Positions 8,601 through 41,376 are shown, counted from the stretch's first letter. The stretch is 64,000 nt of DNA from Candidatus Cloacimonadales bacterium (GCA_963662655.2 CAXXTU010000002.1:2528001-2592000); one strand, 5' to 3'. Made by a program: numbers and translations. The notes: generated by a model not told the origin, from the letters alone.

Positions 8601-10150
8601 AGCATCGCAGGAATTCCTATCGTTGTCGAGCCGCTCGTCGGCGTTGGGTTGGTCGCTGCGTTAGGCGGATCGGTTCCGGCAGGCACGGCGTTGACCGCTG
8701 CAAGTGCGTTGACTCTTCCCGATCCGAAGCTGTTGCTCTTGGACGACGAAAGCTGTACCGCGTTTTGCTCGATAATCTGATCGATCTCTGCGGGAGTGAG
8801 GTTTGGATTCTTGCTCAGCATCAGTGCAACAACACCCGAATTACACGGAGTGGCCATTGAAGTACCGTTCCAGCCGTCCAGGTAGCCGGTATTGTTGGAA
8901 TAATCCAAAGATTTGATATTGTATCCCGGGGCCGAGATGTCCGGCCGGATGATACCCATCCCGGGATTGTATGCGTAATCGCCGTAACCGCTTACATCTT
9001 CCCAGGTACAAGGCCCGAGGCTGGAAAAATAGGCGAGATTATCGCTGCTGTCGGTAGCGCCAACGCAGATGACGGACGAAAGCCCACCGGTCAGCGTTTG
9101 ATCGGGATGCAGCCACGGAGGAGGGCAATCGCCGGGGGTTCTTACATTGTCGGGGATGGGGTAAGAGCCTTGCTCGTCGCCTTCGTTACCGGCAGCCACA
9201 CAAGCAACCATGCCGGCTGCGAGAACATTGTTGAAGCTGTCGCGCCAGCTCGGACGGTCCACACCCCATGAGTGCTGCCATCCAAGGGACATACTGATCA
9301 TGTTCGCGCCTTGATTCACTGCGAACTGGATCGCGTTCCATACCGCCGATTCCGTTCCGCTTCCTCCGCTGTCGAGCACCTTGAGCGCCATGATCGTCGC
9401 TTCCGGTGCGATACCCGTTTGCGATCCAGCGGTTCCGTCTCCGGCCACGGTTCCCGCACAATGTGTTCCGTGGTCGGCATCGTCCATCGGATCGTTGTCG
9501 CCATTGATGAAGTCGTATCCGTGATTGGGGTACGAGGCGTTCGTCCACATGTGATCCTGGAGATCGTGGTGGTTGTAGTTGACGCCGGTATCGATGACCG
9601 CGACCGTCACACCTTCACCATGATAGCCCAACGCCCAGACGTCCGTCGCACCAACATGCGAGACGTTCCAGGTGATTTCACGCGAACCGGGTTGACCTTC
9701 GACCCGCACGCTGCTCTCTTTCTCGCGTGCGTCGAGCATGTTGCGCTTCTCGTCCAGATCGATGGATTCGATCTCTTTTCGCAAGGCGATCTGGCTGATC
9801 ACGTCCGCCGTTGTGTGGCAGCTAACCACGTTGGTTATCCAAAGCGGACGAAGGTTCTGCACATCGCCGCGGGAAGCCGCCAACTGATCGAGCAGACCTT
9901 CCTGACGATCTTCGGCAAAAGCCTTCAGCTCGGAAACGACGTATTCGCGTTTCTGCACGCGATCCATTCCGCGAGTCGCCAGAAGCAGATCGTTCGAGTT
10001 GTATTGTTCGCTCAATCGAATATTGATTGGGATAAGTTCTTTATCGGAGGCGGATTTCATAGCCTCCATAAGCGGGTCTGTTATTGTCGCTGCCGAGAGG
10101 GACAGGACAAACAAAGCGAAAACAAGTGAACACAAGCGCTTTACGTACAT
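2621..10150 (-). CDS. Large secreted S8 (subtilisin-like) serine peptidase with FN3, Ig-like/choice-of-anchor, beta-sandwich and beta-propeller modules (~2509 aa)
   Basis: Catalytic triad motifs VAVIDTG, HGTHCAG and GTSMATP. The likely start is MYVKRLCS at 10150 (AAGGAG RBS, signal peptide), not 10270. Repeated I.SNDP and W.IDNV modules. Confidence 0.9.
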   Translation of the reverse strand: MYVKRLCSLVFALFVLSLSAATITDPLMEAMKSASDKELIPINIRLSEQYNSNDLLLATRGMDRVQKREYVVSELKAFAEDRQEGLLDQLAASRGDVQNLRPLWITNVVSCHTTADVISQIALRKEIESIDLDEKRNMLDAREKESSVRVEGQPGSREITWNVSHVGATDVWALGYHGEGVTVAVIDTGVNYNHHDLQDHMWTNASYPNHGYDFINGDNDPMDDADHGTHCAGTVAGDGTAGSQTGIAPEATIMALKVLDSGGSGTESAVWNAIQFAVNQGANMISMSLGWQHSWGVDRPSWRDSFNNVLAAGMVACVAAGNEGDEQGSYPIPDNVRTPGDCPPPWLHPDQTLTGGLSSVICVGATDSSDNLAYFSSLGPCTWEDVSGYGDYAYNPGMGIIRPDISAPGYNIKSLDYSNNTGYLDGWNGTSMATPCNSGVVALMLSKNPNLTPAEIDQIIEQNAVQLSSSKSNSFGSGRVNALAAVNAVPAGTDPPNAATNPTPTSGSTTIGIPAMLKWNNGGGASSYTVFIGTNNGAPWNLVNGQTTSTPYISVSGLNYLSTYYWRVDSHNANGDATGTIWSFTTGAEADENFETGDFTANDWFFEGDAEWTIDSSNAYEGGFCAKSGVISHNEETSMAITLNCAGGSTISFYSMVSSEASYDYLHFYVDDDQEEQWCGEEPWTYHAYYVSEPGTHTFRWTYDKDGSESDGSDCARVDFVYFPEPLTGDPSIHFTPTQIDFGQVVVGGSSSASFQISNTGGETLSGTVFAPEGYRVSSSLRDVEASREQSRNVLGFAIPTGASMTLHLFFEPTAVATYNDEVTISSNDPENSEVSISLFGTGINPATITYTPGSFTETLDVDETASQTLTLGNDGDETLTYQVTYASSDRSRDDLFSEDFNSGIPGTWTITDGGTTTDTWYGEDAYGSSSSSLDGTMFAFSNSDAAGSGQTTDEILTSPSIDCSGYTNIMLEFDQFFNYIDGYGTEQGDVEVWDGATWQNVWTSGLIDWGSWALPDHQTIDLTEYANSALQIRFHYYAVYDLFWAIDNVSITGDFSGPLWLTLNGGTSASGSIAASGADEAVQIGFNSTGLSYGTYNATINVASNDPNNGSVDIPVSLVVSDAPQEQEIVVSPLSFEKSIVAGNTANETLTIDNIGGMDLTWSAVVTEVASRDIDLFDFDSGLPTGWNILDYGVTGLTWENVTDYEGASFDGTPFMLVNSGAYPEGVQFYDMIQSSMINTAGYSSITLELDHLFKVRTNELAQIYVHDGSEWHGVANFSSDQGTDFNSFAHPVYDLSEYAGNVLQIMFYYYDNNNQGYYWAIDNVQLNLDENPVWLTLDGGESASGTIEALDPAVPITVGFDAQNLAIGDYSKNITITSNDTDEGTIVVPVTLHVTSEPEPEIIVNPASLAFGTLEIGQTDTKQFTIQNTGLAILTGSIVTPSGYTVTLATRSRASVREGVKTRNSLTFSIDAGNTATYNLTFEPLYDQSYNGNVVIANNAGADEIIAVTGEGVTPPTAAITWNPASFNAAQEPDTQTSQNLTIGNNGALALTYEATVDYPSRSRTDLIDESFDSGMPGDWTIEDGGGTTDTWEVVSAYDTNTLDGTPFAFLDSDGAGQVDMDESLITPTLDVTDYTSLTLEFDQYFYYYQTEIADVDVWNGSSWDNLLSMSGAAVGSWSTPDHKTIDLTSYINSELKVRFHYYNANYEWYWAVDNVEIYGEGGPVSSTWLTLDGGESVNSTIASGGSDDVISVGFDSDNLTTGSYSAYIVLTSNDPDHASETIPVTLVIDEVVPDIDATPLSFNYTLEPDQTDQGTIQLMNLDAGTLNWSASVTQMSRNLVDAGYHGMRSGGTSNGQSDVPILSTSNTTFNGIRATGDLLLQYDVNAPTGSVLHLGCEVFQGQIWTTAGGLTSSSDDSNYLYRFDSNGNLLNTYDQITTSQWGLRDMAHDGTYLYAGDDNGFYRIDPATGAQTMLFSSNFGLGCIRALSYVPSMGFITCNWNNTYGEIIVFDASGNILDELAIPTSISNIYGSAYDPSDHTLWFFDISGPDEYQLTTFYQYDIATEALTGESIVVPVLVDSIIEQQAGGACLTSELTEGKMALCGIAQTEPDTFFAVELRDAVNWISLTSGTSGSLSGNSGPAEIGFSIDTADMVDGETHSAEIVISSNDPDEPTIVIPVNLTIETYPAFNLTPSSLTFGDVPLQTSETLQFTIENNGFAEMSGTITTIDGYTVSEISTTRTGSARKEVASVSNGRNALSYLIPGYSSQTFDLTLTPVAEETYNGSIVITSNDTNYPSNQLAVTGTGVYLPFPDIEVTPVLLSFNVDPDDTQTKTFAISNVGEAGLNYSISEGIVASLATRTELTGALSSSREMQRTDWIGFDPTSGTVAVDSYQIISVTANTAGMTSGDYQTMLEIQTNDPDEAIVEVQINLRVKYQPLPIDDLSIQIDAGTVYLTWSTTTYATQYVIYAAASPEGPYTQVGQTNITVWSTAASEEMKYFMVKAKN

Positions 10151-10172
10151 TTGAATCTCCTTGGTGTCATAT

Positions 10173-10442
10173 TTATAATTGATTTGATTGATAAAAACGG
10201 GAGAGCTCTTTTCTGACTTCTTCTGGAAGTGAGTGCCATCGGACTCTGCGAACCGCTCCTTCGAGGGCATACAGCTTGGTCAGGCAGGCATCGGGGTCTA
10301 TCGCTCTGATTTGTATAAACGCACGACGACTGCCCAGGCGATCCAGATCCTCGCGGCTCTCGATACCTGCTCGTATCAAGATTTCTTCCAGTTTTCTGCC
10401 AATGTTAGGCAAGCTTTGCAGTTTCCCCATCAATTTCCCCAT
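10173..10442 (-). CDS. TfoX/Sxy C-terminal domain protein
   Basis: LPNIG..LE..L..AGI...L..LG...KLYALEGA....W..L pattern. The start is ambiguous because of a 12-bp duplication encoding MGKL-MGKL. Confidence 0.8.
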   Translation of the reverse strand: MGKLMGKLQSLPNIGRKLEEILIRAGIESREDLDRLGSRRAFIQIRAIDPDACLTKLYALEGAVRRVRWHSLPEEVRKELSRFYQSNQL

Positions 10443-26728: not shown

Positions 26729-29425
26729 ATGAAACAGACGTATCGAATTCTCATTGCCGACGACGAAATGCACGTCCTTGCCACGTTCAGCAAGGTACTG
26801 AAGCAGAGAATAAAAAATGCCGACAAGATCAATGAGCTGAAAGAACTGGAAAAGAGTCTCTTTGATCATGAAGAAGACCCACTGCTGAAATTCGATTATG
26901 ATCTGACCCTGTGCGAGCAAGGCAACCAGGCTGTCGACGCTGTGAAAAAAGCGATCGAGGAGGACGATCCATTCTCGATCGTATTCCTGGATGTCCGCAT
27001 GCCACCCGGAATCGACGGCATCGAAGCTGCCGAACAAATCCGGGCGATCGATCAGGATATCGAAATCGTTATCGTCACGGCTTTTGCTGACACGAACGTT
27101 GACGATGTATGCAGGAGAATCCCACCACTCGACAAACTTCTCTTCATCCTCAAGCCTTTCCATCCGATCGAAGTTGTGCAATTCACGGCAGCGCTGGTTA
27201 CCAAATGGGAAAACGAGCGCAACCTGAGAATCCTCCACGGGCAAATGGAAGAAGAGCTGAAATTCCGCGAAGACAACATCATGATCCTGTACGAGAAGCT
27301 TCAGAATGACATTCAACGCCGCAAGCGATACGAGAAACAACTCGAGCGACACGCGATTGTCTTCGAGACCATGGATGAGGCAGTCCTGATCTCCGACACC
27401 GAAGGTAAACTGATTGACGCGAACGAGTCGTTCGAAAAAATATATGGATACACCAAGCAGGATTTCCTTGGGAAGCGGCTGGACATCATGCATCCGGACG
27501 GCACCAGCATCGTCGACACGATTTTGAGAAACCTGAAGAATGAAGGTTCCTGGGTCGGGGAGCTTCCGATCGTCCGCAAGAACGGTCGCAAAGGCTGGGT
27601 AAGAGTCAACGTAAAAGAATATTACGATGAGCATCAAAAACTCATCGGGTACCTCAGCGTGAATCGGGACATCACGGAAAACAAGCGTGCCTTCGATATT
27701 ATGAAGCAGCAGAAGAACCTGATGGAAGATGTCTTCACCCGCATCCACGAGGGTATTGGATTCGTGAACGAGAAGGAGGACTTCATTTTCGTGAATCCGT
27801 CCTTTGCCCGAATCTTCGAGACGTCGGTCGAGAGCCTGATCGGAAACAACCTCTCAGAATACCTAGAAGATATCGATCAATCGATGATCGACGAACAAAC
27901 GAGCCAGCGCAAGCGAAACCTGATAAGCACCTACGAACTCAACATCAAGACGAAAAAGGGCAATAAAAGAACAATTCAGGTAAGCGCATACCCGCGTAAG
28001 GACGTCAACGGAGCTTATCTTGGAGCGTTCGGCGTTATACAAGATATCACGGAACAAAAGCGCTTGAAGGAACAATTTCTGCAATCGCAGAAGATGGAAG
28101 CGATGGGCAGGCTCGCTGGCGGTATCGCGCACGATTTCAACAACCTCCTCACCATTATCAGAGGAAGCAGCGAACTGCTCCGCACTCGCATTCCGGAAGA
28201 CCTCGAACACGACTTCCTCGAAGAGATCGTAAAGGCCTCCGACCAGGCCAAGCTCCTCGTCGATCAGCTGCTTTTGTTCAGCCGCAAACAGACGACTCAG
28301 ACAGAGATTATACAGGTCAATAACATCATCGAGGAGACACACTCGCTGCTGAAACGAATACTGGGCGTGAACATCGCCTTCGAAGTGCATCTCGATCCGG
28401 AAATAGGTCTGGTCGAGGTCGATTCGGGGCAGATCAAGCAGATCATGATGAACCTGGCGGTCAATTCGCGCGATGCAATGCCGACAGGTGGCAAAATTAC
28501 ACTGACGACCCGCAATATCGAAATCGATGAGAAGTTGCAGGGCACGATCCAGGGATCGCGGCCCGGGAGTTTTGTCAGCGTCAGCTTCAAGGATACGGGC
28601 AAGGGAATTCCGGAGGACGTCATTCCACAGATTTTCGAGCCGTTCTTCACCACGAAGGAGGCGGGACATGGTACCGGCCTGGGGCTCTCGACAATCTTCG
28701 GTATCATACAGAAACACAACGGATGGATCAATGTTGAAAGCAAGGTGAATCAGGGAACCTGTTTCACGTTTTACATCCCCCGCATCGATAGCGATTTCGT
28801 GCACCAGGAACAGGAAAACCAGCTCATCGTCGAATTGAAGGGAAAAGGAGAAACAGTCCTCGTCGTGCAGGAGAATCACTCCGTGCGCGAATTCACCTCC
28901 AAAGCGCTGCAAGAAAACGGTTACAGAACCTATACCGAAAGCAACGCACTGGGAGCGAGAAACTGCTTCAACAAGAACAAAGCGGAGATCGATATTGTCG
29001 TATCGGACGTGAATCTCTCCGATTCGACCGGCATGTTCATCATCAATGAGATGATATCTCAGAAGCCAACCCTCAAGGCCGTGCTCACAAGCGGATTCGT
29101 GGGCGAGGACGAGAAGCTCGACCTCATTGAAAGCCTGCAAGTTCCACTCCTGCTGAAGCCGTACACCATTAAGGAAATGCTGGTCGCGCTCAAGCAGAGC
29201 CAGAAGTCCGACATCGACCTCGAAGACTATTGCGAGCTTTATGAGATATGCAACTTCATCAATCCGAAGAACCCTGAGCAACACCAGATTATCGACGGCT
29301 GGAAACGGATGTTCTGCAAAAACCTGGTGAAATCGGAACGCTGTAAGCGGAAGAAGTATTTCTTCGAAACCGGCAAGCAACCCGAGCCCAACATGACGCC
29401 CACGGGGAATTATCTGGAAGAGTGA
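26729..29425 (+). CDS. Hybrid histidine kinase REC-PAS-PAS-HisKA-HATPase-REC with a C-terminal Cys4 domain
   Basis: FLDVRMPPG, GIAHDFNN, NLAVNSRDA, DTGKG, FFTTK, GTGLGL. Confidence 0.92.
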   Translation: MKQTYRILIADDEMHVLATFSKVLKQRIKNADKINELKELEKSLFDHEEDPLLKFDYDLTLCEQGNQAVDAVKKAIEEDDPFSIVFLDVRMPPGIDGIEAAEQIRAIDQDIEIVIVTAFADTNVDDVCRRIPPLDKLLFILKPFHPIEVVQFTAALVTKWENERNLRILHGQMEEELKFREDNIMILYEKLQNDIQRRKRYEKQLERHAIVFETMDEAVLISDTEGKLIDANESFEKIYGYTKQDFLGKRLDIMHPDGTSIVDTILRNLKNEGSWVGELPIVRKNGRKGWVRVNVKEYYDEHQKLIGYLSVNRDITENKRAFDIMKQQKNLMEDVFTRIHEGIGFVNEKEDFIFVNPSFARIFETSVESLIGNNLSEYLEDIDQSMIDEQTSQRKRNLISTYELNIKTKKGNKRTIQVSAYPRKDVNGAYLGAFGVIQDITEQKRLKEQFLQSQKMEAMGRLAGGIAHDFNNLLTIIRGSSELLRTRIPEDLEHDFLEEIVKASDQAKLLVDQLLLFSRKQTTQTEIIQVNNIIEETHSLLKRILGVNIAFEVHLDPEIGLVEVDSGQIKQIMMNLAVNSRDAMPTGGKITLTTRNIEIDEKLQGTIQGSRPGSFVSVSFKDTGKGIPEDVIPQIFEPFFTTKEAGHGTGLGLSTIFGIIQKHNGWINVESKVNQGTCFTFYIPRIDSDFVHQEQENQLIVELKGKGETVLVVQENHSVREFTSKALQENGYRTYTESNALGARNCFNKNKAEIDIVVSDVNLSDSTGMFIINEMISQKPTLKAVLTSGFVGEDEKLDLIESLQVPLLLKPYTIKEMLVALKQSQKSDIDLEDYCELYEICNFINPKNPEQHQIIDGWKRMFCKNLVKSERCKRKKYFFETGKQPEPNMTPTGNYLEE

Positions 29426-29518
29426 GGAGGCGCGATCCCGCCAACCTCATGTCCGCCCATAAGATAAATATCTTGACGTGTTTTCGATGCTGGAAATCAT
29501 GACACGCAATAAGGAAAA

Positions 29519-29659
29519 AAGAAGCGTCTGCTTCTACCTTGCGGTTCGCTAGCACCCGCTGAAAAAGCGGGGAGATACTTGTAAGGTCTGATACTAACGA
29601 GATATATCGTCATAAATATATCCGAAGCAGGCGCATTGTGTGCGCCTGCTTCTTTTTTT
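29519..29659 (+). ncRNA. L20 leader-like ribosomal protein attenuator
   Basis: AGAAGC-gtct-GCTTCT, then an ACCTT...AAGGT helix, then terminator GAAGCAGGCGCA..TGCGCCTGCTTC-T7. An alternative antiterminator pairing is possible. Lies directly upstream of infC-rpmI-rplT. Confidence 0.7.
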
Positions 29660-29681
29660 AACCCAAACCTGGAGGTGTCCA

Positions 29682-30278
29682 ATAATACGAATTAGAAAAG
29701 GCAAGGCCAAAACCAAGGCCGTGATCCCAAAAGAGCGGGTCAATCGTCAGATTACCGCCCGAGAAGTACGTTTGATCGACAAAGACGGAGAACAGGTAGG
29801 CGTCGTGGATACCCGCGAGGCAATACGCCGTGCGGAAGAAGCCGGACTGGACCTGGTGGAAGTTTCTCCCAAGGCTGTGCCGCCCGTTTGTCGTATTCTC
29901 GAATTCAGCAAGTACTATTACCAGAAAGAACGTCGTGCCCGTGAGGCGAAGAAGAAACAACACACCGTTCAGATCAAAGAGATCAAGTTCGGGCCAAACA
30001 CCGAAGAACACGACTATAATTTCAAGAAGAAAAACACGGTCAAATTCCTCAAGGGACATGACAAAGTCAAGCTGACCGTTCGTTTCCGCGGCAGACAGCT
30101 CGCCCACAAAGAACTGGGCTACGATCTGCTGAACAAACTCAAAGAAGAATTGAAGGAAATTGTCGACGTTGATCGTGATATCAACAGCGAAGGACGTACC
30201 ATTTTTATGATCGTCTCGCCGAAAAAAGAGATCGACTCCCTCGTGGAAGCCTGGGAAGAAGAACACATCGAAGATTAA
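29682..30278 (+). CDS. infC: Translation initiation factor IF-3 (non-canonical ATA start inferred)
   Basis: N..I..REVRLID..G, LDLVEV, IKEIKF, RFRGR. GGAGG at 29671 is followed by in-frame ATA codons (29682, 29685). Confidence 0.93.
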   Translation: MIRIRKGKAKTKAVIPKERVNRQITAREVRLIDKDGEQVGVVDTREAIRRAEEAGLDLVEVSPKAVPPVCRILEFSKYYYQKERRAREAKKKQHTVQIKEIKFGPNTEEHDYNFKKKNTVKFLKGHDKVKLTVRFRGRQLAHKELGYDLLNKLKEELKEIVDVDRDINSEGRTIFMIVSPKKEIDSLVEAWEEEHIED

Positions 30279-30323
30279 TCATCGACAAGGATTTCGATAG
30301 ATATACTTGAAGAGGAGGATGAA

Positions 30324-30518
30324 ATGCCTAAGCTGAAAACAAGAAAAGGCGCATCGGAACGCTTTAAACTTACCGCATCCGGTAAGCTGAAAAGAAATCA
30401 CGCAAACCATGGTCACATCCTGACCAAGAAGACTCGGAAGCTGAAACGCAACCTGACCCAAACCGCGATTGTTGCCAAGGCGGATGTACCGAGAATAAAA
30501 AAGATGATGGGCGTATAG
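30324..30518 (+). CDS. rpmI: 50S ribosomal protein L35
   Basis: MPKLKTRKGASERFKLTASGK; synteny. Confidence 0.97.
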   Translation: MPKLKTRKGASERFKLTASGKLKRNHANHGHILTKKTRKLKRNLTQTAIVAKADVPRIKKMMGV

Positions 30519-30527
30519 GAGGATACC

Positions 30528-30893
30528 ATGCCGCGTTCAGTAAACAATGTAGCAGCGAAAAGAAGAAAGAAAAAAATACTGAAAGCCGCCAAAGGCTATT
30601 TCGGTGGACGTAGTAAACTGTATCGTACCGCTCGCCAGGCCGTGGAAAAAGGCTGGCAATACGCTTATCGCGATCGCAAAGCCAAAAAGAGAGACTTCCG
30701 TCGCCTGTGGATCATCCGCATCAACGCAGCCGCTCGCCTCAACGGTCTTTCCTACAGCAGATTCATCAACGGACTGCACAACGCCGAGATCAACATCGAT
30801 CGTAAAGCGCTGGCACACCTCGCGGTGCACGAGCCGGACGCATTTGCAAAGCTTTGCGAAGTTGTGAAAGCCCAACCACAGCCTGCAGAATAA
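30528..30893 (+). CDS. rplT: 50S ribosomal protein L20
   Basis: [25 protein letters not shown]. Confidence 0.97.
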
Positions 30894-30947
30894 CCGAGAA
30901 ATTCGATAGACAAGAGTCTCAACAAGCCAAACACACAGGATTGGACC

Positions 30948-31967
30948 TTGAAAGATAAACTTGATGCGATTCTGCGCTTGGCGCAGGACGAGATCAAGGC
31001 TGTGCAGTCGCAGCACGATCTCAATATGCTCAAATCGAAATATCTGGGAAAGAAAAGTGAGCTTTCCGAGCTTCTGAAACAGCTTGGCACCCTTCCCAAG
31101 GAAGAAAGGCCGGCTTTCGGCCAGGTGATCAATCAGGCCAAGAAGCATGTAGAAACACTGCTGAAAGAGCAGGCGGAAGCGCTTCAGGATTTCCTTTATC
31201 AGAAATCCATCGAAGAAGCGAAAATCGATATAACCATGCCGGGGCGTCATCGTGGAAGAGGATCTCTGCATCCCATCACCATGGCGACCCGTCTGATCGA
31301 AGACGTTAGCATGTCGCTCGGTTTCGAAGTGGCCGAGGGATACGACATCGAAGACGAATACCACAACTTCGACGCCCTCAACACGCCGCAGGATCACCCC
31401 GCGAGAAACCTTTCGGATACATTCTACATCGAGGACGACGTTCTGCTCAGAACCCAGACCTCGACCGTGCAGATCCGGGTTATGCAAAGCCATAAACCGC
31501 CGATCCGTATCATCTCACCCGGGCGCACTTACCGCAACGACAACGACGCGTCACACTCGCCGGCGTTCAGCCAGGTGGAGATGCTCGTGGTCGATAAAGG
31601 CGTTACATTCGTCGATCTTCGCGACATGCTCAACATGTTCGTTCAGAGGATTTTCAGCGACAAGATCAGCTCCCGCTTCCGTCCCCACTTCTTCCCCTTC
31701 ACCGAACCCAGCGCCGAGATGGACATCGTCTGCGTGGCCTGCGAAGGCAAGGGATGCCCGCTCTGCAAAGGCACGGGCTGGCTGGAAATGGGCGGAGCCG
31801 GAATGGTCGATCCCAACGTCTTGAAAGAATGCGATATCGATCCCGAAATCTATTCGGGGTACGCCTTCGGACTGGGCATCGAGCGCATCGCCATGCTCAA
31901 GTACAAGATTCCGGATATGAGAATGCTGTTTGAGAACGACCTCCGTTTCCTCAGGCAGTTCCGTTAA
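30948..31967 (+). CDS. pheS: Phenylalanine-tRNA ligase alpha subunit
   Basis: NFDALN, LRTQTS, FPFTEPS, AFGLGIER; TTG start. Confidence 0.97.
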   Translation: MKDKLDAILRLAQDEIKAVQSQHDLNMLKSKYLGKKSELSELLKQLGTLPKEERPAFGQVINQAKKHVETLLKEQAEALQDFLYQKSIEEAKIDITMPGRHRGRGSLHPITMATRLIEDVSMSLGFEVAEGYDIEDEYHNFDALNTPQDHPARNLSDTFYIEDDVLLRTQTSTVQIRVMQSHKPPIRIISPGRTYRNDNDASHSPAFSQVEMLVVDKGVTFVDLRDMLNMFVQRIFSDKISSRFRPHFFPFTEPSAEMDIVCVACEGKGCPLCKGTGWLEMGGAGMVDPNVLKECDIDPEIYSGYAFGLGIERIAMLKYKIPDMRMLFENDLRFLRQFR

Positions 31968-32011
31968 TTGTTTTATTCATTCAAACAAACTCTCCAGCGG
32001 ATGGAAAACCT

Positions 32012-34633
32012 ATGAAAATCAGTTACAACTGGTTGAAGCAATATATCGATCTGGAGCTGAGTCCCGAAGAGCTTCAGGAGAAGATGACCTTCGCGGGTAT
32101 CGAAGTGGAGGACGTCCAGTATCTCGGAGATGAGCTCAAGGACGTTGTCGTCGCGAAAATCGTAACCAGGGAAAAGCATCCCGATGCCGACAAGCTGTCC
32201 CTCTGCACCGTTGATGACGGAACCACCGTTCATCAGGTTATCTGCGGCGCGCCCAACACACGCGCCGGGCAAATCGTGGCGTTTGCTCCCATCGGAACGC
32301 AGATCGGTGAAATCACGCTCAAGAAGGCGAAAATCCGCGGCGTAGAATCGTTCGGAATGATATGCTCCGAACGCGAGATGGGACTTTCGGACAATCACGA
32401 CGGCATCCTGGAACTTCCGCAGGACGCTCCCGTCGGGGCGAGTCTGCCGGAATACCTCAATCTGCGCGATATCGTCTACGATGTCGAGATTACGCCCAAT
32501 CGCTCAGACCTTCTGGGCATGATCGGCGTCGCCCGAGATCTGGCCGCCGTTCTCGACCTTCCCATGCGGCTGCCGGAGATGCCGCTCAGTGCGTCGAAGG
32601 TTTTCCACAACGATTACATACCCAAGTACGATCTGCGCACCGTAACGCGCGAAGAGCTCCTGACGATCCCCGAGATCGGGCCCAAACGCGCCGACTACAT
32701 CATCGAGTATCGTGAGAAACACGGATTCGACACCCTGAAAAGCCTTCTCAAGGCGGATAAGATCGGCGATCACATCCTCGAGCGACTGATGCTCGAATTC
32801 AAGCCGTTCGGTTCGGTTCAGGAAGTGTGGCAAAGCATCAACGAGGTGCTTTCTCTGGAGAACAAAGCTCCGAAGAAGTGCCCGAGATACACCGCCCGTT
32901 TCATTAAAGGCGTCACGGTCAAGGATTCACCCGAGTGGCTCAAGAAGCATCTGATCTCTGTCGGGCTCCGTCCCATCAACAACATCGTAGACGTTACCAA
33001 CTACGTCATGATGGAATTCGGCCATCCGCTCCACGCTTTTGATTACAAACAGATTGAAGGACACAAAATAATCGTCCGCACCGCTAAAGTCGGTGAACCC
33101 TTCCAGGCACTGGACGAAGAGAAGCACGTGCTGACTTCGGACGATCTGGTCATTTGCGATGGAAAGAAACCTATCGCGCTGGCGGGTGTGATCGGCGGGA
33201 TGAACTCCCAGATCGACGACACCACCACGGATATCGTCATCGAAGCGGCGAACTTCCTCTACTCGTCCGTCCGCAAGACGTCGAACCGCCTCAAGATCAA
33301 CACCGATTCTTCCTACCGCTTCGAGCGAGACATCTCCGACGAAAACGCGATTCTCGCCAGCGACCGCGCTGTCCAGCTCATCCTGCAAACAGCTGGCGGA
33401 ACGTTGTACGACGGCGTGCTCGATTCCTATCCGAATCCGATAAAACCGATTGTCGTGAGTCTGCGGCCAGAACGCACGCGTCAATTCCTGGATGTCGAAA
33501 TTCCCGACAACAAGATGATCGATATCCTCGAATCGCTCAACATTTTATTAGTTGGAGAAGAAGGTGAAACCCTCTTCTTCCGCGTCCCGCATTATCGCAA
33601 AGATATTACTCGTGAAGCCGACCTGATCGAAGAAATCATCCGCATCTGGGGTTACAACAACGTTGGAACCCGCACGCATCTTCAGCATATTCAGAACCGC
33701 GACATGTTCTACATGCGTCGCAACATCCAGGATTATCTGGTTGATCGCGGATTCTTCGAGGTGATCAACTGGCCTTTCGCCGATCCCGAAGACCTCGACA
33801 AACTCCAGATTGCCGCGGATGACAAACGACGCGAAAACACCGTGATCATGAACCCGATCGGCGTCCGTTTCTCGCTGATGCAATCGACCATGCTGCCGAG
33901 TTTGCTACGCAACGCCCAGCACAACCTCAACCACGGTCAGCACGACTTCAAGCTGTTCGAGATGAACAAGCTGTTCTTCCGCAAGAACGAGAAGCTCGCT
34001 CGCGAAGAAACCTGGGTTACAGGCGTCATGACCGGCTCGCGCGAACCGATGTACTGGAACGGCAAGCAGGAAACGCTCGATTTCTTCGACATCAAAGGCG
34101 AAATGGAGGAACTCTTCATCGCGGCCGGACTCGACGTCCCCGCCGTTCAGGAATCGGATCAACCCTACCACATGAAGGGGCAAGCCGCTTCCTTGATGAT
34201 CGATAAGGAAGCCGTTGGATCCTTTGGACGCCTCGATCCGAAAATCGCCCGGATTTACGACATCGAAGCCGAGATATACGTTTTCGAAATCTGTATCGAT
34301 TCGCTCCTGAAGCACTGGAATGAACACCGCATTCAGTTCTGCGACGTCTCCCGTTTCCCGGGTGTCCAGAGGGACCTCTCCATCCTCGTTCGGCGCGATT
34401 TTTCCGTCGAGGAGATCAGCCGCGAAATCCTTCAGGCGAACCCGGAAATCATCCGCAATGTAAGCCTGTTCGATGTGTTTACGGGAAAGCAGGTTAAGGA
34501 TGGTTATCGAAGCCTCACCTTTAAGCTGTATCTGCAATCTTCCACAAAAACCTTGACGGACAATGCGATAAACAAAATATTCTCAAGGATTGTCTCCAGA
34601 CTGGAGCAGAAATTCAATATTGAGATGAGGTAA
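32012..34633 (+). CDS. pheT: Phenylalanine-tRNA ligase beta subunit with an inserted ComEA-like HhH domain
   Basis: MKISYNWL, HPDADKL, GMICS..E, TPNRSD, NNIVDVTNY, RFER, FDX-ACB C-terminus; an extra ~70 aa after TPNRSD. Confidence 0.96.
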   Translation: MKISYNWLKQYIDLELSPEELQEKMTFAGIEVEDVQYLGDELKDVVVAKIVTREKHPDADKLSLCTVDDGTTVHQVICGAPNTRAGQIVAFAPIGTQIGEITLKKAKIRGVESFGMICSEREMGLSDNHDGILELPQDAPVGASLPEYLNLRDIVYDVEITPNRSDLLGMIGVARDLAAVLDLPMRLPEMPLSASKVFHNDYIPKYDLRTVTREELLTIPEIGPKRADYIIEYREKHGFDTLKSLLKADKIGDHILERLMLEFKPFGSVQEVWQSINEVLSLENKAPKKCPRYTARFIKGVTVKDSPEWLKKHLISVGLRPINNIVDVTNYVMMEFGHPLHAFDYKQIEGHKIIVRTAKVGEPFQALDEEKHVLTSDDLVICDGKKPIALAGVIGGMNSQIDDTTTDIVIEAANFLYSSVRKTSNRLKINTDSSYRFERDISDENAILASDRAVQLILQTAGGTLYDGVLDSYPNPIKPIVVSLRPERTRQFLDVEIPDNKMIDILESLNILLVGEEGETLFFRVPHYRKDITREADLIEEIIRIWGYNNVGTRTHLQHIQNRDMFYMRRNIQDYLVDRGFFEVINWPFADPEDLDKLQIAADDKRRENTVIMNPIGVRFSLMQSTMLPSLLRNAQHNLNHGQHDFKLFEMNKLFFRKNEKLAREETWVTGVMTGSREPMYWNGKQETLDFFDIKGEMEELFIAAGLDVPAVQESDQPYHMKGQAASLMIDKEAVGSFGRLDPKIARIYDIEAEIYVFEICIDSLLKHWNEHRIQFCDVSRFPGVQRDLSILVRRDFSVEEISREILQANPEIIRNVSLFDVFTGKQVKDGYRSLTFKLYLQSSTKTLTDNAINKIFSRIVSRLEQKFNIEMR

Positions 34634-34636
34634 ACA

Positions 34637-34957
34637 ATGACGCAGCCGATCAATCAGCTTGAAGGAAAAATTCAGACATTAATCAATAAATATCAGGAAC
34701 TCAAAGAGATAAACACCAGAGCCATGGACCATAACCATGAGCTCGAAACAACACTGGCTGATCGCAATCAGGTGATTCAGGGCCTGGAAAACCAGCTCCG
34801 CGAACTCACCCAGATTTGCACGAGTCGCGAAGAGAAGATCACCCGCCTCCAGGAAGAAAACGATGCCATGAGCGAGAAGATCGAGCAGTTTGAAGCAACC
34901 ACGAAAGACGCGACGGGAAGACTGGACAGCATCCTCAGCCAAATCGAAGAATTATAG
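34637..34957 (+). CDS. Coiled-coil protein, ZapB-like
   Basis: All coiled-coil sequence; pheT-zapB-zapA synteny. Confidence 0.65.
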   Translation: MTQPINQLEGKIQTLINKYQELKEINTRAMDHNHELETTLADRNQVIQGLENQLRELTQICTSREEKITRLQEENDAMSEKIEQFEATTKDATGRLDSILSQIEEL

Positions 34958-34960
34958 TGT

Positions 34961-35227
34961 ATGAAAACAATCGAGGTTGAGCTATTCGGAAGAAAGCTGC
35001 GAATTCGGGGAGACGACCCGGCGAAGATACACAAGTACGCCGACTACCTGAATGCGGAGCTGAACGAGCTCAAATCCAAGATTGAATTCACCGACCATAC
35101 GAATTTAATCTTGTTCGGCGCTCTGATCATCACCGAGAAGTATTTTCTGGAACGTGACATGAACAACGCCCTGGCGGATGAGATGAATCGCCTGAACGAT
35201 ATGATCAAGGCTTTTGTAACCGAATAG
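34961..35227 (+). CDS. zapA: Cell division protein ZapA
   Basis: IEVELFGRKLRI...ADYLN...GAL.I; synteny with 6S RNA and rny. Confidence 0.8.
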   Translation: MKTIEVELFGRKLRIRGDDPAKIHKYADYLNAELNELKSKIEFTDHTNLILFGALIITEKYFLERDMNNALADEMNRLNDMIKAFVTE

Positions 35228-35246
35228 CCTCAGATTACGTTTTTTT

Positions 35247-35415
35247 GCCTGCGGTATTCGTGATGGGGTCTTGCAAATGAACCTAAGAACGTAGAGGGAA
35301 TCGAGCCTCGTGCGGCGCGCAAGCCGGACATGATCCGGATTCGTCAAGTGCGTAAGGTAGATACCCACCTTGTGTGGGGGTTCTGCGAGCAATATTTCAC
35401 ACGGTATCGCGGGTT
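35247..35415 (+). ncRNA. ssrS: 6S RNA
   Basis: Lies between zapA and rny. Closing stem CCTGCGGTATTCGTG/CACGGTATCGCGGG; GAACC..GGTTC, GGGA and CCCACCT motifs around a central bubble. Ends are approximate. Confidence 0.8.
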
Positions 35416-35563
35416 TGCATTTTCCAGGCAATGTAAATCCTTTTGTCGATTATCGAGACATGCCTGAGCCGTTTTGGGAAATTTCTCCACATTGTCGACC
35501 TTTCGGGATACTGCGGGATTCCGGGCTGGCCTTGTGTAAATAAATCAAAGTGAGGTAATTGTA

Positions 35564-37132
35564 ATGACTCTAATAAATCTCGGCGCTTTTGCCGTCGGCC
35601 TTGTTCTCGCAATTTTCGCTGTTATTCTCATCTACATCATCAAACGCAATAAAATCCGCCACGAACTGATCGATTCACGCACTGAAGCAGACAAGATGAT
35701 CGTCGAAGCGAGAAAAGAGGCCGAGACCATCAAGAAAACGACCATCCTTGAAGCCAAGGACGAATGGTACAAAATCAAGAAGAAGGAAGAGGAAGCCATC
35801 GACGAGCGCCAGCGCGAGCTGCGCGGAATGGAAAAACGCTACAACGAAAGGCTTTCGAACCTCGATAAACGTCTTGACGCTCTCGATAAAAAAGAGCACA
35901 ATCTTGAAAAACTCGACCGCAACATCAAAGAGCAGGAAGAAAAACTGCAAGCCCGTTCCAAAGAAGTAGAACGAACGATCGAAAAGCAGGAAGAAAAGCT
36001 GATGGAGATCGCTCAGCTCACGAAAGAACAGGCTATCGAACGGTTGGAAAGCGGTTTGATCGCCAAGGCTCGCAATCATGCAGCCGCCCAGGTAAAGCAG
36101 ATTCTCGAAGAAGCGCAGCTCAAGGCTTCACGCGAAGCCGCCGGATTCATCGCCACCGCGATTCAGCGTATCGCCGTCGATTACGTATCCGAATCGACCG
36201 TGGCCGTCGTCTCGCTTCCCGGCGACGAGATGAAGGGACGCATCATCGGTCGCGAAGGCCGTAACATCCGCGCGTTCGAGAAAGCTTCGGGCGTCGATGT
36301 GATCATCGACGATACGCCGGAAGCCGTCGTGCTCTCCTGCTTCGATCCGGTTCGCCGCGAAGTGTCCCGCATCGCGCTCGAGAAGCTGATTCTCGACGGC
36401 AGAATCCATCCCGGCCGCATCGAGGAAGTCCTCGAGCGCACCCGCAAGGAGATGGACGAGAACATCATCAAGATCGGTGAGCAGGCCTGCATCGAGGTCA
36501 ACGTCCACAATATTTCACCCAATATCATCAAGCTGCTCGGTCGTATGCAATACCGCACCAGCTACGGGCAAAACGTGCTTCAGCACAGCATCGAAGCTGC
36601 GTGGGTCGCCGGAATGCTGGCTGCGGAACTTGGTCTCGATCAGGAACTCGCGCGCCGCGCCGGATTCCTGCACGACATCGGCAAGGCCGTCGACCACGAA
36701 GTGGAAGGCTCACATGCCTCCATCGGTGCAACCATCGCCCGTAAGAACGGCGAGAGCAAGCTGATCATCAACGCGATCGAAGCGCACCACGAAGAAGTGG
36801 AGCCCACCAGCATCTACGCAGCGCTCGTACAGGCTGCGGACGCCATCTCTGGCGCACGCCCGGGAGCGAGGCGCGAAATGCTCGAATCCTACATGCAGCG
36901 GCTCGACAAGCTGGAAGAAATCGCCGGCACGGTCGAGGGCGTGAACAAGTCGTTCGCCATCCAGGCCGGACGCGAGCTTCGCATCATTGTCGACCCGGTT
37001 TCTATCGACGACGGCAAGACGCTCTATATCGCCGCCGATATCGCGGAGAAGATCGAGAAAGAAATGCAGTATCCCGGCCAGATAAAGGTCGTTGTGATAC
37101 GCGAAACACGCCAGACAGCAATAGCGAAGTAA
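35564..37132 (+). CDS. rny: Ribonuclease Y
   Basis: TM anchor, coiled coil, KH motif [16 protein letters not shown] motif LHDIGK. Confidence 0.97.
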
Positions 37133-37133
37133 T

Positions 37134-37913
37134 ATGAGATTTCTCTTCTTCGGTGACGTTTTCGGGAAGCCCGGCAGGCGAATCGTTCAGGAAAACCTGC
37201 AGAAGCTCAAAGACGAATTCAGAATCGATATTTCAATCATGAACTGCGAAAACCTCGCTTCGGGCAGAGGCGTTACGCGCAAAACCGCCGTCCCTCTCTT
37301 CGAAGCGGGTATCGACGCTTTCACAAGCGGTAATCATCTATGGGACCGCAAGGAGTCGATGGAGTACCTGCATTCCGAGTCACGCATTGTCAAACCGATC
37401 AATTTTCCATGTGACGCAACTGGCAACCCCCATTATATTATCGATAAGGGGGGAATCCGTATCTGCGTCGTAACGGTGGTAGGGCACGCTTTCATGACTG
37501 GCGCAGATTTGCCCATTCAGTCGCTGGAAGAAGCGTTACCCACACTACAGAAAGAGTCTGACATAATTGTCGTCGATTTCCACGCGGAATCCACGGCGGA
37601 GAAAAGGGCCATGGGCTTCTACTTCGACGGCCAGATACAAGCTTTGCTGGGTACGCACACGCATATCCAAACCGCCGATGAGGAAATCCTGCCCCGCGGA
37701 ACAGCTTACATCACGGACGTGGGCATGACGGGACCGCACGATTCGGTTATCGGCGTTAAAAGGAAAATCATCCTCGAGAAAATGCGCACAGGTATGCCGA
37801 TCCAGTACGAGGTTGCCGATTCAGGTTTGCAGATCAACGCGGTCTGCTTCGAGATTGACGACAGTACCATGAAAGCGGTTTCCATCGAGCGAATCAGGAG
37901 GAGTGTTCACTAA
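37134..37913 (+). CDS. ymdB: YmdB-family metallophosphoesterase
   Basis: GDVFG, TSGNH, DFHAESTAEK, GTHTH; follows rny. Confidence 0.92.
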   Translation: MRFLFFGDVFGKPGRRIVQENLQKLKDEFRIDISIMNCENLASGRGVTRKTAVPLFEAGIDAFTSGNHLWDRKESMEYLHSESRIVKPINFPCDATGNPHYIIDKGGIRICVVTVVGHAFMTGADLPIQSLEEALPTLQKESDIIVVDFHAESTAEKRAMGFYFDGQIQALLGTHTHIQTADEEILPRGTAYITDVGMTGPHDSVIGVKRKIILEKMRTGMPIQYEVADSGLQINAVCFEIDDSTMKAVSIERIRRSVH

Positions 37914-38773
37914 TGCAGGTTCTTAAAGGTCTCCCTGTCGCGAAAAAACTCTTCGCGGAAGCCAGGGCCAGAATAGAGGCGAAGAATCTGGCGCCAAAGC
38001 TCACGGTTATCATTCTCGGTAACGACCCCGCAGCGATGTTCTATGTGCAGAATATCGAGAAGAAGGGCGCGAGCATCGGCGTTGATGTCACCATCATGCG
38101 TGAGGACGATTCGATTTCGCAAGATCAACTCCTTTCGATTATCCACGGGCTCAACGAAGATCCGAACGTTCACGGCATCATGGTGCAGAAACCGCTTCCG
38201 AAGCAGATCGACGACATGACTGTGTCTATCGCCATCGCACCGGAAAAGGATGTGGACGCGTTCCACCCGATGAATCTCGGAAACCTCCTTCTGGACCGCG
38301 AAGGCTTTATCCCGTGCACACCGGCTGCTGTGATGGATATGATCCGGCACTACGAGATTCCCGTTTCAGGGAAGCATGTTGTCGTGCTCGGACGTAGCGA
38401 CATCGTTGGTAAACCCATGGCGCTTCTGCTCCTGCGAAAACGCGATTTCGCCAACGCGACCGTTACCGTCTGCCACAGCCGGACACAGAATTTAGCTGAA
38501 ATCACTCGTTCCGCCGACGTCCTTATCGCCGCAATCGGCGTGGCGAGGTTCGTCAAAGCGGACATGATAAAAGAGGGCGCTGTTGTAATCGATGTCGGAG
38601 TGAATGAAATCTCCGACGGCCAGGGCGGCACAATGTACACCGGCGATGTCGATTACGACGATCTATGTGAGAAGACCACCATGATAACCCCTGTTCCAAA
38701 AGGAGTTGGGACGGTAACGACCGCACGCTTGATTTCCAATGTCGTGGAGGCTGCTTTTCGCAATCGGGAATAG
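37913..38773 (+). CDS. folD: Bifunctional methylenetetrahydrofolate dehydrogenase/cyclohydrolase
   Basis: KDVDAFHP, PCTP, GRSDIVGKP, TPVPKGVG. Confidence 0.95.
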   Translation: MQVLKGLPVAKKLFAEARARIEAKNLAPKLTVIILGNDPAAMFYVQNIEKKGASIGVDVTIMREDDSISQDQLLSIIHGLNEDPNVHGIMVQKPLPKQIDDMTVSIAIAPEKDVDAFHPMNLGNLLLDREGFIPCTPAAVMDMIRHYEIPVSGKHVVVLGRSDIVGKPMALLLLRKRDFANATVTVCHSRTQNLAEITRSADVLIAAIGVARFVKADMIKEGAVVIDVGVNEISDGQGGTMYTGDVDYDDLCEKTTMITPVPKGVGTVTTARLISNVVEAAFRNRE

Positions 38774-38904
38774 GTTTTGGGATTGATTCTGCGGATAAAG
38801 AGAAATGTTTTTTTGAAAAAATACGTGTTATTTTGGATTTTTTGTTGACGGATTCCTGTCGACAAATGAAGTTAGACGAACATTATAAGGGGATTGGAGG
38901 AAAT

Positions 38905-41376
38905 ATGCGTGGTATAACCAGCAAACTGTTTGTTCTGGCACTGATCACGATTACAGGTCTGTTTATACTAACCTCATGCGAGCACTCAAAGGGCTCTCTA
39001 AGAAGTAATCAGCCACCGTCAATACAGATCACTTCGTATAATGGAGCGGTGGATTCATCGAATGTTTATTCAGATACGCTGCTTTATCAACAGACCATAT
39101 ACTGGGAAGGTGTCGATACAGACGGTATCATTGCAGGATATGCTTTCCGTATTCTGGATAACGACGGCAATGCTGTGGGAACCTACAACTACGAAACCCT
39201 CGACGGCGAAGGTTGGGTTTACCACTACAAAGAAGGCGCTAACGAAAGCGATCCGAACCACCCGCTCGGTGATCCGGAAGTCAGCACAATTTGGACGTCT
39301 CGTCCTTCTGCTACGATTCGCTTCCCCGCCAGCATTTCTCAGCAGATTATCCGGGATTCTCTTCCTGACGGCAGCTACATTGAGACCATCATCAATGAAT
39401 CTGCAACCGGTATTCCTTACCTGTTCGAAGTGAAAGCGCTCGACAACCGAGACGCCCAGAGCAGTATTGTTGGGAAATACTTCTTCACTTACTCGGTCAA
39501 GCCGGAAACTTACATCTCCACCACCAAGGGCGAGCTCTCCTACATCGACGAAGATACGGAACAGATCGTTTACAAAGATGTCGGTCTTGGCGTTCGCTTC
39601 TCATTCTCGATGGTAGACGAAGATCCTTACATCGCAAATGACCCGAAGGAATTCAAGTACGTCCTCTACAAAGTGGACACAGACGGTAATTTCGTACAAG
39701 ACGACAATTACAAGTGGACGGAGCTTCCAGATACAACGGACTTGGACGAATGGTATATCGCGTACGATTCAGGTAACATCTCTCGCCAGATTCTCACGGC
39801 AGACCCATTCAATACGCCGCCGCTCGTGGACTTCAACGACGACAATTACCTCACGCGTATCGCCTGTATCGGTATCGACGAAGCAGGGCTTCCTTCCTAC
39901 ATGGCATATAAGGATTTCAGAGTGAAAGAGGGATTCTACCCGGGAACTCTGGTCTACAATTACGATATTTTCGCGCTCGGCGACAACCACTTTGTCGATT
40001 ACCGCGACTTCAGTCTCGGAATCGTAATCCCGAGCCGTACCACGCTTACCGGTATCGAATACTCGACACCACTGTTTATCGACCAGCACAGCAGGCTTGT
40101 CGCCCTTCATAGCGATGACCTCCAGATTCACATGTACTGGGGATTCAACGGTGAATTCAGCAACAACAGCCCTCGCGAGAAGAAAGAAGACGTTGTTCTC
40201 GACGAACAAACCGGTGTCAACTACCTCAGCGAAATCAGATTCTTCGATTTCCGCTTGAATGGCGAACCGTACAGGCTTCCTGCGTTTGGTGATCCAAGCC
40301 AGTACGTCGTCACCGATAATGACGGTACGCAGTGGAGCCGCTTCTATATCTCGAGCGAATATGCAAAGAGGGTTACGCTGGTTAACCTCGAACCAACCGA
40401 TCCTTTCGATATCAACAGCTACCACAAGTTTGAAGTTCGCGCCGTTGACCTTCAGAACGAACCGGATCCAACACCTGCCGAATTCTCATTCAAACTTGAT
40501 GCACCTCTTTCTTACGAAGAAAAACAAGGTATCTTGATCATCGACGACGAAATCGATCACGCATTCAGCCCTCAAGATACTGTTTATGCTTTCTATAACG
40601 ATTATATTGCCGGCTACACTCCAAACGAAGTACTCGATTACAAGTATCTCGAAGAAAGCGTTTGGGATTCCCAGCTCCACTTCAGTAAGGACGTTCTCTC
40701 GCCAACCGATCTCCAGAAGTACAAACTGGTCATCTGGCACGTCGAGAATCCGCCCAAAAACATCAAGAACAACTTCGCGAAAGAGTACGATGTTCTGAAT
40801 CTTTACCTTCGTAGCGGTGGTAACATCATCCTTGTCGGTGGTGCGAACCTCTCGAATGTTTACGATGCGATCGTCTCCGAAGCTTATCCCATCTTCGAGG
40901 ATTACTTCGGCCTTTCCGCTAGCGTGAACGATGTTTCTGCGGGTATTCGCTTCCTTCCTGGTCCTCTTACGCAGGAACCATATTTCATCGGCGCTGAACC
41001 CACAAATTCAGATTGGCCGCAAGTCATGGTTAATCTTGAAGGAAACTGGAGCGCTATCGGTCCGATCATCTCGGCTCGTGGCGGTATCGGCTCAGTATCG
41101 TACTTCAACAACGGCAATTTCATTTCCGGCGTCGAAGTCCTATACAAAACCATTATCAAGGATCCAAGCGCAGAGGTTTACCCTCCATCCGCGGAACAAT
41201 ACGCAGCCTACAACGAGCGTCCAAACGTACTCCGCTTCAAACGCGAAGTTGCCGGACAGGTTGGCGTGCAGCAAACATGTTACCTTGTCGGTTTCCCGCT
41301 GATCTATATGGATCAGGCTGCAACGCAAGAAATGATGGGTAAAATGATTGAAGACGTCATGACCCAAAACGACTAA
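38905..41376 (+). CDS. Large lipoprotein of unknown function (823 aa) with Ig/FN3-like modules
   Basis: GGAGG RBS before MRGITS; lipobox LTSC; W.G.D.DG, FEVKALD and FEVRAVD...DPTPA. Confidence 0.8.
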   Translation: MRGITSKLFVLALITITGLFILTSCEHSKGSLRSNQPPSIQITSYNGAVDSSNVYSDTLLYQQTIYWEGVDTDGIIAGYAFRILDNDGNAVGTYNYETLDGEGWVYHYKEGANESDPNHPLGDPEVSTIWTSRPSATIRFPASISQQIIRDSLPDGSYIETIINESATGIPYLFEVKALDNRDAQSSIVGKYFFTYSVKPETYISTTKGELSYIDEDTEQIVYKDVGLGVRFSFSMVDEDPYIANDPKEFKYVLYKVDTDGNFVQDDNYKWTELPDTTDLDEWYIAYDSGNISRQILTADPFNTPPLVDFNDDNYLTRIACIGIDEAGLPSYMAYKDFRVKEGFYPGTLVYNYDIFALGDNHFVDYRDFSLGIVIPSRTTLTGIEYSTPLFIDQHSRLVALHSDDLQIHMYWGFNGEFSNNSPREKKEDVVLDEQTGVNYLSEIRFFDFRLNGEPYRLPAFGDPSQYVVTDNDGTQWSRFYISSEYAKRVTLVNLEPTDPFDINSYHKFEVRAVDLQNEPDPTPAEFSFKLDAPLSYEEKQGILIIDDEIDHAFSPQDTVYAFYNDYIAGYTPNEVLDYKYLEESVWDSQLHFSKDVLSPTDLQKYKLVIWHVENPPKNIKNNFAKEYDVLNLYLRSGGNIILVGGANLSNVYDAIVSEAYPIFEDYFGLSASVNDVSAGIRFLPGPLTQEPYFIGAEPTNSDWPQVMVNLEGNWSAIGPIISARGGIGSVSYFNNGNFISGVEVLYKTIIKDPSAEVYPPSAEQYAAYNERPNVLRFKREVAGQVGVQQTCYLVGFPLIYMDQAATQEMMGKMIEDVMTQND

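Follow-up and report, generated by a model that had tools for sequence, protein, structure and literature searches.

A ComEA-type helix-hairpin-helix domain inserted in the phenylalanyl-tRNA synthetase beta subunit of a Cloacimonadota lineage

The locus described here raises the question of why PheT, the phenylalanyl-tRNA synthetase (PheRS) beta subunit and a protein of very stable architecture among bacteria, should carry 77 extra residues that resemble a DNA receptor. The gene lies in a stretch of 64,000 nucleotides from Candidatus Cloacimonadales bacterium (GCA_963662655.2 CAXXTU010000002.1:2528001-2592000), hereafter the window, to which all coordinates refer. A ComEA-like domain entered this subunit by insertion, had a single origin, and has been held under purifying selection in an enzyme whose own domains and editing residues are intact. 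This is a genuine case of lineage-restricted domain capture in an essential enzyme, and apparently an undescribed one. The two features at its center are the following:

32012..34633 (+), pheT, PheRS beta subunit, 873 aa, identified by TIGR00472 and tblastn
32600..32830 (+), in-frame insert of 77 codons in the linker between B1 and B3, residues 197-273, placed by alignment and motif spacing

Boundaries and identity of the insert

The initial annotation described an 873-residue PheT with a helix-hairpin-helix (HhH) domain in frame between its TPNRSD segment and its CPRY motif, at 32590-32830. The open reading frame and the motif positions confirmed this arrangement: TPNRSD occupies residues 161-166, CPRY residues 290-293, and the ComEA-like peptide residues 206-259 (window 32627-32788) between them. 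The proposed span was essentially right; alignment of PheT across the phylum, with 25 insert-free relatives, gave an insert of exactly 77 aa against relatives of 796 aa and mapped it to residues 197-273, with edges that may shift by 1-2 residues. Its absence from typical PheT, also claimed, was borne out by the distance from TPNR to CxRY: of 38 PheTs measured in Cloacimonadota, 5 have 129 aa between these motifs and 33 have 50-62 aa. Compared with bacterial PheRS beta subunits in general (TIGR00472; 1pys, 3pco, 7k98), the PheT of the window shares domain order, editing pocket, and operon context, but has 77 extra residues, an (HhH)2 unit between B1 and B3, and its 873 aa exceed the 775-836 aa of the bacterial PheT structures compared.

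Profile searches gave the added region an identity. Pfam HHH_3 (PF12836) matched residues 207-259 above its cut-off of 27 bits, scoring 35 bits when the whole protein was searched and 39.8 bits for the stretch on its own; it scored 35-42.7 bits in all six insert-bearing proteins known to us and gave no match in two insert-free PheT controls. Within the genome, HHH_3 was found only in ComEA, PheT, and one 849-codon frame. A phmmer search of the excised stretch against the PDB returned ComEA 8dss as the best match (E 5e-8), together with 8dfk, 2duy, and EEPD1, while the insert region stayed below the cut-offs for ComEA proteins (TIGR01259, 40.2 against 152.35 bits; TIGR00426, 36.3 against 53.1 bits). 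The suggested fit to the ComEA/HHH_3 pattern therefore stood as to identity (HHH_3, 8dss), but not in its detail, both 'GIG' hairpins being without their first glycine. The GC content of the insert is 0.54 against 0.53 here, with no consistent sign of foreign base composition, and a search of Rfam over 28000-40000 matched only a 6S RNA, with no match inside the insert.

Distribution, origin, and donor

A full 873-residue match to PheT was present in 5 of 41 related genomes, four of them from one genus (G000-G003, 80-81% identical) and one from a second genus (G006, 55%); in the remaining related genomes, PheT matched in separate pieces that skip the insert. A sixth carrier, P0006, came from a protein search as a four-member JGI/Logan protein cluster with 54% identity. 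All six insert-bearing PheTs are 873 aa long and share the insertion site, at identities down to 53%. A profile of the insert plus flanks, run over 232 Cloacimonadota genomes, many of them incomplete, gave E <=7e-64 in five carriers and no better than 2.9e-19 in the others, the weaker matches listed covering only the HhH part in short frames. Two genomes of genus g2, from the same family as the carriers, are insert-free; G005 of this family was left out, its pheT being truncated near residue 161 by the end of the contig.

Rarity is all that speaks for an assembly chimera or for a selfish insertion, such as an intein or repeat element. Against them, the same site and length recur in five genomes and a separate metagenomic cluster, the contigs are unbroken across the region, no second copy of the insert DNA was found in the genome (best other blastn E 0.2), and the insert is an all-helical 77-aa fold with no intein family match in Pfam. 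Independent support comes from the same insert in G001, G002, G003, G006, and P0006; a chimera is ruled out by these independent genomes, and this whole class of explanations has a negligible probability. The unbroken contigs are two Logan contigs of one sample, which cover 32000-34700 with zero differences; they probably represent the source sample and are not independent.

A PheT tree of 31 rows, from which the insert had been left out, joins the six carriers in a single branch (Shimodaira-Hasegawa-like approximate likelihood ratio test, SH-aLRT, 83, by a quick method), which is moderate support for a single origin. One insertion event took place, before the two genera split. Word-based protein searches found the insert in 6 of 254, 2 of 115, and 4 of 40 candidates, every one from the same clade, and a GTDB scan (13 loci) gave full-length matches only for the 4 known relatives. 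Of two metagenome scans, one confirmed none of 156 pattern matches and the other gave no matches; such scans miss real members, since P0006 exists in JGI. A search for independent fusions elsewhere found no PheT body sequence in the best 150 of 7083 representatives, with low power, the known fusions being themselves absent. The one named record is annotated only as phenylalanine--tRNA ligase subunit beta. In family f7, PheT (L026, L028, L029) has an unrelated 10-residue insertion in the same B1-to-B3 linker, so this linker tolerates insertions and deletions.

As to the source of the domain, the genome has a separate ComEA gene encoding 201 aa, a protein that contains two HhH domains (domains 1 and 2) and is hydrophobic over a stretch at its N terminus. 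Measured against 30 two-domain ComEAs, the inserts have mean identities of 33-42% to domain 1 and 29-33% to domain 2. A span shorter by one residue is seen in 6/6 inserts, 30/30 domain 1 sequences, 0/30 domain 2 sequences, and 84/311 other HhH domains. Inserts and domain 1 also have in common a D-L-R start, an F-x-x-D-Y upstream flank, and an F-x-x-F-G end; because span, start, and both flanks match domain 1, about 70 of the 77 insert residues look like one copied block. A 116-row tree groups the inserts with all 30 domain 1 rows (SH-aLRT 94), 25 of which had been picked by similarity to the insert. The test was repeated with ComEAs not so picked, and profiles from these scored the inserts at 47-66 bits for domain 1 and 41-44 bits for domain 2, a margin of only 4-6 bits in G006 and P0006. 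Domain 2 was split from the insert plus domain 1 with SH-aLRT 98, and the comparison of nested and sister placement gave p 0.59 in the approximately unbiased (AU) test.

These similarities suggest that the donor was very likely domain 1 of a two-domain Cloacimonadota ComEA. The simplest donor story is weakened by the identity of only 30-34% between each insert and domain 1 of the same carrier, a value exceeded by some domain 1 sequences of other families, which are up to 50% identical to inserts; the donor would have been either an ancestral form or one from another Cloacimonadota lineage. In an insert-free genus of the carriers' family (G004, G007; L092, L094), ComEA is short (152-codon frame) with a single HhH of the domain 2 type, and ComEA domain 1 was not found in this genus.

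Predicted fold and altered binding face

A model of the domain alone (predicted local distance difference test, pLDDT, 87.7) best matched ComEA 8dss with a root-mean-square deviation of 0.9 Å over 61 columns (Z 11.3), although the 30 ComEA rows in its alignment lean it towards ComEA; 2duy and Tex came next, then, more weakly, TEFM, KIF22, PsbU, XcpX, and RlmN. Built without ComEA rows, the full-length PheT model reached a mean pLDDT of 86.5 and placed four helices in the insert (213-216, 223-237, 242-247, and 253-259) at about 73-84. Its two HhH motifs are joined by a loop with no connector helix, which is the mark of the ComEA type (PMC9747964). The segments that attach the domain are:

32588..32623 (+), N-side linker, residues 193-204, of low model confidence, with F-x-x-D-Y as before ComEA domain 1
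32804..32839 (+), C-side linker and junction, residues 265-276, 9 of its 12 columns being invariant across all six sequences, starting with the F-x-x-F-G end of ComEA domain 1

The predicted template modelling score (pTM) of the full-length model is 0.56, and linker residues 193-204 and 265-273 have pLDDT <50, which may arise because only 6 of the 30 alignment rows cover the insert. From these models we strongly infer that the insert folds like a ComEA domain and hangs on flexible linkers. The placement of the domain near the editing domain, as first proposed, holds along the sequence and is only putative in space.

The two HhH motifs are:

32648..32722 (+), first HhH, residues 213-237, with Glu221 (E/D/A in the family) in place of the first Gly, and Gly223, Arg226, and Arg234 invariant
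32735..32788 (+), second HhH, residues 242-259, first Gly replaced by Lys250 (K/N), Gly252 invariant, Lys-Thr replaced by His254-Ile255 (H/K/R, I/V)

Vibrio cholerae ComEA has K63 as the main DNA contact and K62 as a minor one, loses transformation with G60V/E, and has in R71 a probably structural residue (PMC3879209). Insert residues G223, K225, R226, and R234 are spaced like G60, K62, K63, and R71 of the V. cholerae protein; G223, R226, and R234 are invariant in the six inserts, while position 225 is K in four, R in one, and V in one. In Bacillus ComEA, K164A costs >2 logs and K193A 2-4-fold, and a docking model of the Geobacillus stearothermophilus protein puts K166, K195, and T196 on phosphates, loss of K166 abolishing DNA binding (PMC9747964). 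By phmmer alignment, these three correspond to R226, H254, and I255 of the insert. The basic residue after hairpin 1, equivalent to V. cholerae K63 and B. subtilis K164, is thus R226 in 6/6 inserts, a position that varies in domain 1 (K13, R12, and T4 of 30), and the Lys-Thr phosphate contacts after hairpin 2 are replaced in 6/6 by H/K/R followed by I/V. Judged from the aligned residues, the main basic contact appears to be retained and the second hairpin contacts changed.

The hairpins themselves are altered as well. The first Gly of each GIG hairpin is replaced in 6/6 inserts (E3, D2, and A1 in the first; K5 and N1 in the second) and the second Gly is kept in 6/6, so that none of the six has the Gly-hydrophobic-Gly of ComEA-type hairpins. 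Both first glycines are replaced in 0/30 domain 1, 0/30 domain 2, and 18/311 other HhH domains, and the last group has an acid at the first hairpin position in 6/311. In other HhH-DNA structures, the backbone nitrogen of the first hairpin Gly contacts phosphate. This Gly is not among the residues mutated in the portions of two ComEA studies drawn on here (PMC3879209, PMC9747964). Over ten hairpin-face positions, net charge ranges from 0 to +4 in inserts and from +1 to +6, with a median of +4, in domain 1. Because the first Gly of both hairpins and the second-hairpin Thr are lost, binding is probably weaker than that of ComEA. Overall, the insert resembles the ComEA domain (PF12836; 8dss, 8dfk, 2duy), and domain 1 in particular, in its predicted fold, loop-joined HhH pair, D-L-R start, flanks, and basic contact; it differs by these replacements and by sitting inside a cytoplasmic enzyme, whereas the ComEA domain sits behind a membrane anchor. 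It plausibly adds a predicted nucleic-acid-binding surface to PheT.

Such a surface could mean that the domain still binds double-stranded DNA (dsDNA) and keeps PheRS attached to the nucleoid, in addition to the DNA binding reported for B5. The known ligand of the donor is dsDNA, the equivalents of K62/K63, G60, and R71 are retained, two copies per tetramer would add avidity, and PMC6035289 mentions, with reference to Lechler and Kreutzer 1998 and to Dou et al. 2001, a suggested DNA binding by B5 of bacterial PheRS. However, neither hairpin has its first Gly, the equivalent of the T196 phosphate contact is Ile/Val, and no DNA-related gene linked to the pheT operon was found. When ComEA is confined to the cytoplasm of Escherichia coli, the chromosome becomes compacted and high expression is lethal (PMC3879209), a toxicity that speaks against strong chromosome binding and would give a reason for weakened binding in PheT. 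We regard a DNA tether or moonlighting role as unlikely.

The fold could instead pack on PheRS as a structural cap or bind another protein, as in PsbU or GspK. PsbU and XcpX (GspK) are among its fold neighbors with Z 5-6, the invariant residues specific to the insert include S244 and W273, and the C-side junction is conserved. Yet the full-length model gave no confident docking, the basic contact R226 is conserved, and a candidate partner gene was not found, which leaves protein docking improbable.

Host enzyme, selection, and possible use of the insert

Two further features describe the enzyme around the insert:

30948..31967 (+), pheS, PheRS alpha subunit, 339 aa, with ordinary domain content (Pfam tRNA-synt_2d, Phe_tRNA-synt_N)
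32876..33397 (+), B3/B4 editing domain of PheT, residues 289-462, with intact pocket residues

TIGR00472 scored 829.7 bits on the whole PheT (cut-off 402.65) in a match split in two at the insert, and the domain series B2 (tRNA_bind), B3/4, B5, CLM, and FDX-ACB is complete, in standard order, and adjoins pheS. The pheT gene lies directly 3' of pheS in the order infC-rpmI-rplT-pheS-pheT, a normal context in which infC, rpmI, and rplT were named by eye from translations and pheS by Pfam. Editing-pocket residues P339, H341, L367, G392, and E411, assigned by motif and spacing from the Mycobacterium tuberculosis set Pro273, His275, Leu300, Gly325, and Glu344 (PMC8136816), are invariant in 30/30 aligned PheTs. 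The genome, 98.95% complete in 2 contigs, has a single full-length pheT (one full tblastn match) and one tRNA-Phe gene (gaa). As PheT is the sole full copy in a 99%-complete genome, it is predicted to charge tRNA-Phe together with PheS.

Purifying selection acts on the insert as it does on the remainder of PheT. Within the genus, its ratio of nonsynonymous to synonymous substitution rates (dN/dS, Nei-Gojobori) was 0.109, 0.030, 0.062, 0.045, and 0.120, with a sixth pair saturated, and the rest of pheT gave 0.098-0.121. Invariant columns among the six sequences amount to 28/77 (0.36) in the insert, 34/94 (0.36) in the anticodon-binding B8, 48/112 in B2, 97/174 in B3/4, and 62/196 in CLM, although invariance is a weak test when the six sequences come from no more than two deep branches. 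Compared with ComEA domain 1 from the same genomes, the insert shows the higher conservation in 10/10 pairs, which are not independent (for example 0.83 against 0.75, and 0.50 against 0.38). Its constant length is no special sign, since the whole PheT of the carriers is without insertions or deletions.

The domain may instead be an entrenched passenger, one that landed in a tolerant linker, lost its harmful DNA binding, and was kept only since partial deletion or destabilization would harm the enzyme. The linker spans 50-62 aa, a 12-residue range, among insert-free relatives; the binding motifs are eroded, with a neutral hairpin face in P0006; only 5/232 genomes carry the insert; and no co-occurring change was found in PheS, the editing residues, or Tex. 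The passenger account fits less well with an insert kept whole across ~46% amino-acid divergence, with R226 fixed in inserts at a position variable in domain 1, and with a domain more conserved than its donor counterpart of the same genomes and a C-side junction with 9/12 columns invariant. We see entrenchment as a substantial minority possibility.

The interpretation we prefer, with somewhat less than even confidence, is that the insert is a domesticated, weakened, sequence-independent nucleic-acid grip, most likely helping PheRS hold tRNA-Phe. A wider form of it, in which a ComEA domain with both hairpin glycines changed was retuned as a functional arm, for gripping tRNA or else for tethering PheRS to chromosomal DNA, is possible but doubtful. 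ComEA domain 1 would have been copied in frame into a PheT linker that is variable in the phylum (50-62 aa in relatives). A periplasmic DNA receptor on an essential cytoplasmic alpha2beta2 enzyme, in two copies, would at first have bound the enzyme to the chromosome; replacement of the first Gly in both hairpins and of the second-hairpin Thr would then have tuned binding down, with the R226 contact retained. The arm so retained could aid in capturing tRNA or in rebinding it for editing, much as the adjacent B2 OB domain, itself dispensable, would do. This tRNA-holding analogy is based on the B2 OB domain as reportedly described by Roy and Ibba in 2006. That the useful ligand would be tRNA and not DNA is the least supported part of the proposal.

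Several observations weigh against a nucleic-acid grip. ComEA-type domains are known to bind dsDNA, and tRNA binding by them was not found in the papers drawn on here. An acid occupies the first hairpin position in 5/6 inserts, and the face is nearly neutral in two members, at +1 in the PheT of the window and 0 in P0006. Conservation, assessed on two deep branches, could stem from the folding demands on a protein that is essential and highly expressed; slow evolution is usual in essential proteins in any case. Of the relatives, 33 lack the insert and manage without such an arm, and no compensating loss was found in carriers, whose editing residues are intact, Tex being missing in 31/41 genomes regardless. 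The structural case is likewise tempered by the ComEA rows behind the domain-only model and by the low pTM and linker scores of the full-length one. Finally, ComEA domain 1 of G015 (L093, C40) also has Glu for the first hairpin Gly, so this Glu is not unique to the insert. The G015 domain has no basic pair after the hairpin, and the PheT of G015 is insert-free.

The insert is a variation on a known theme, the recruitment of extra domains into synthetases. The closest parallel is CAAD, which was copied from the stand-alone Curt1 of the same phylum, lies internally in cyanobacterial synthetases, and conferred a new property as a membrane anchor; at least eight recruitments of it are known, all by monomeric class I synthetases (PMC4893482). 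As with CAAD, the likely donor is a stand-alone protein of the same phylum and the position is internal to a synthetase; unlike CAAD, to which it is not homologous, the PheT insert reflects one event, has a fold of nucleic-acid-binding type, and sits in an alpha2beta2 enzyme of class II. It also resembles the B2 OB fold and B5 of PheRS, non-catalytic modules of nucleic-acid-binding type on the beta subunit (for the insert, such binding is predicted), but these are ancient and general, whereas the insert is lineage-restricted, has another fold, and is added to intact B2 and B5. In a literature consisting mostly of open-access main texts, no description of a ComEA/HhH domain in PheT was found, and the one match combining PheT with helix-hairpin-helix, PMC8409312, was unrelated in the part concerned. 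Portions of PMC7948948 and PMC5370408 were also drawn on.

Having entered an oligomeric class II PheRS, with a traceable donor and with sister lineages that lack it, the insert offers a clean example of domain capture by an essential enzyme. A retuned arm would be a natural experiment on ligand switching by HhH domains and on the purpose of PheRS DNA binding. If the arm binds tRNA, an HhH DNA receptor would have been retuned for RNA; if DNA, it would bear on the old, unexplained DNA binding of PheRS; if neither, the locus would document the entrenchment of a passenger domain. The reach is narrow, at five genomes and one metagenomic cluster, and the insert is rare and possibly functionless.

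A few neighboring observations are recorded. Tex is patchy in the order, being found in 10/41 genomes and not in G000; a link between the insert and Tex loss was rejected, as Tex was also not found in 26 insert-free genomes. PheT of families f3, f7, and f8 (L115-L120, L026, L028) has variable low-complexity insertions of ~10-35 residues in the hairpin of B5, the suggested DNA binder, at the position of residues 513-516 of the window PheT. The 849-codon frame (G000:C2 near 642028; L034) encodes an exported protein with degenerate N-terminal HhH domains, and relatives have frames like it, of 842-895 codons. ComEA-like HhH domains also lie mid-protein in a 1806-codon frame of unknown family (G005:C63 near 15750; L091). 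Elsewhere in the window, the 6S RNA (Rfam RF00013, 62.8 bits) lies at 35243-35419 (+), following two small genes after pheT and followed by an rny-like gene in the usual arrangement, and a 2549-aa open reading frame occupies 2621-10270 (-).

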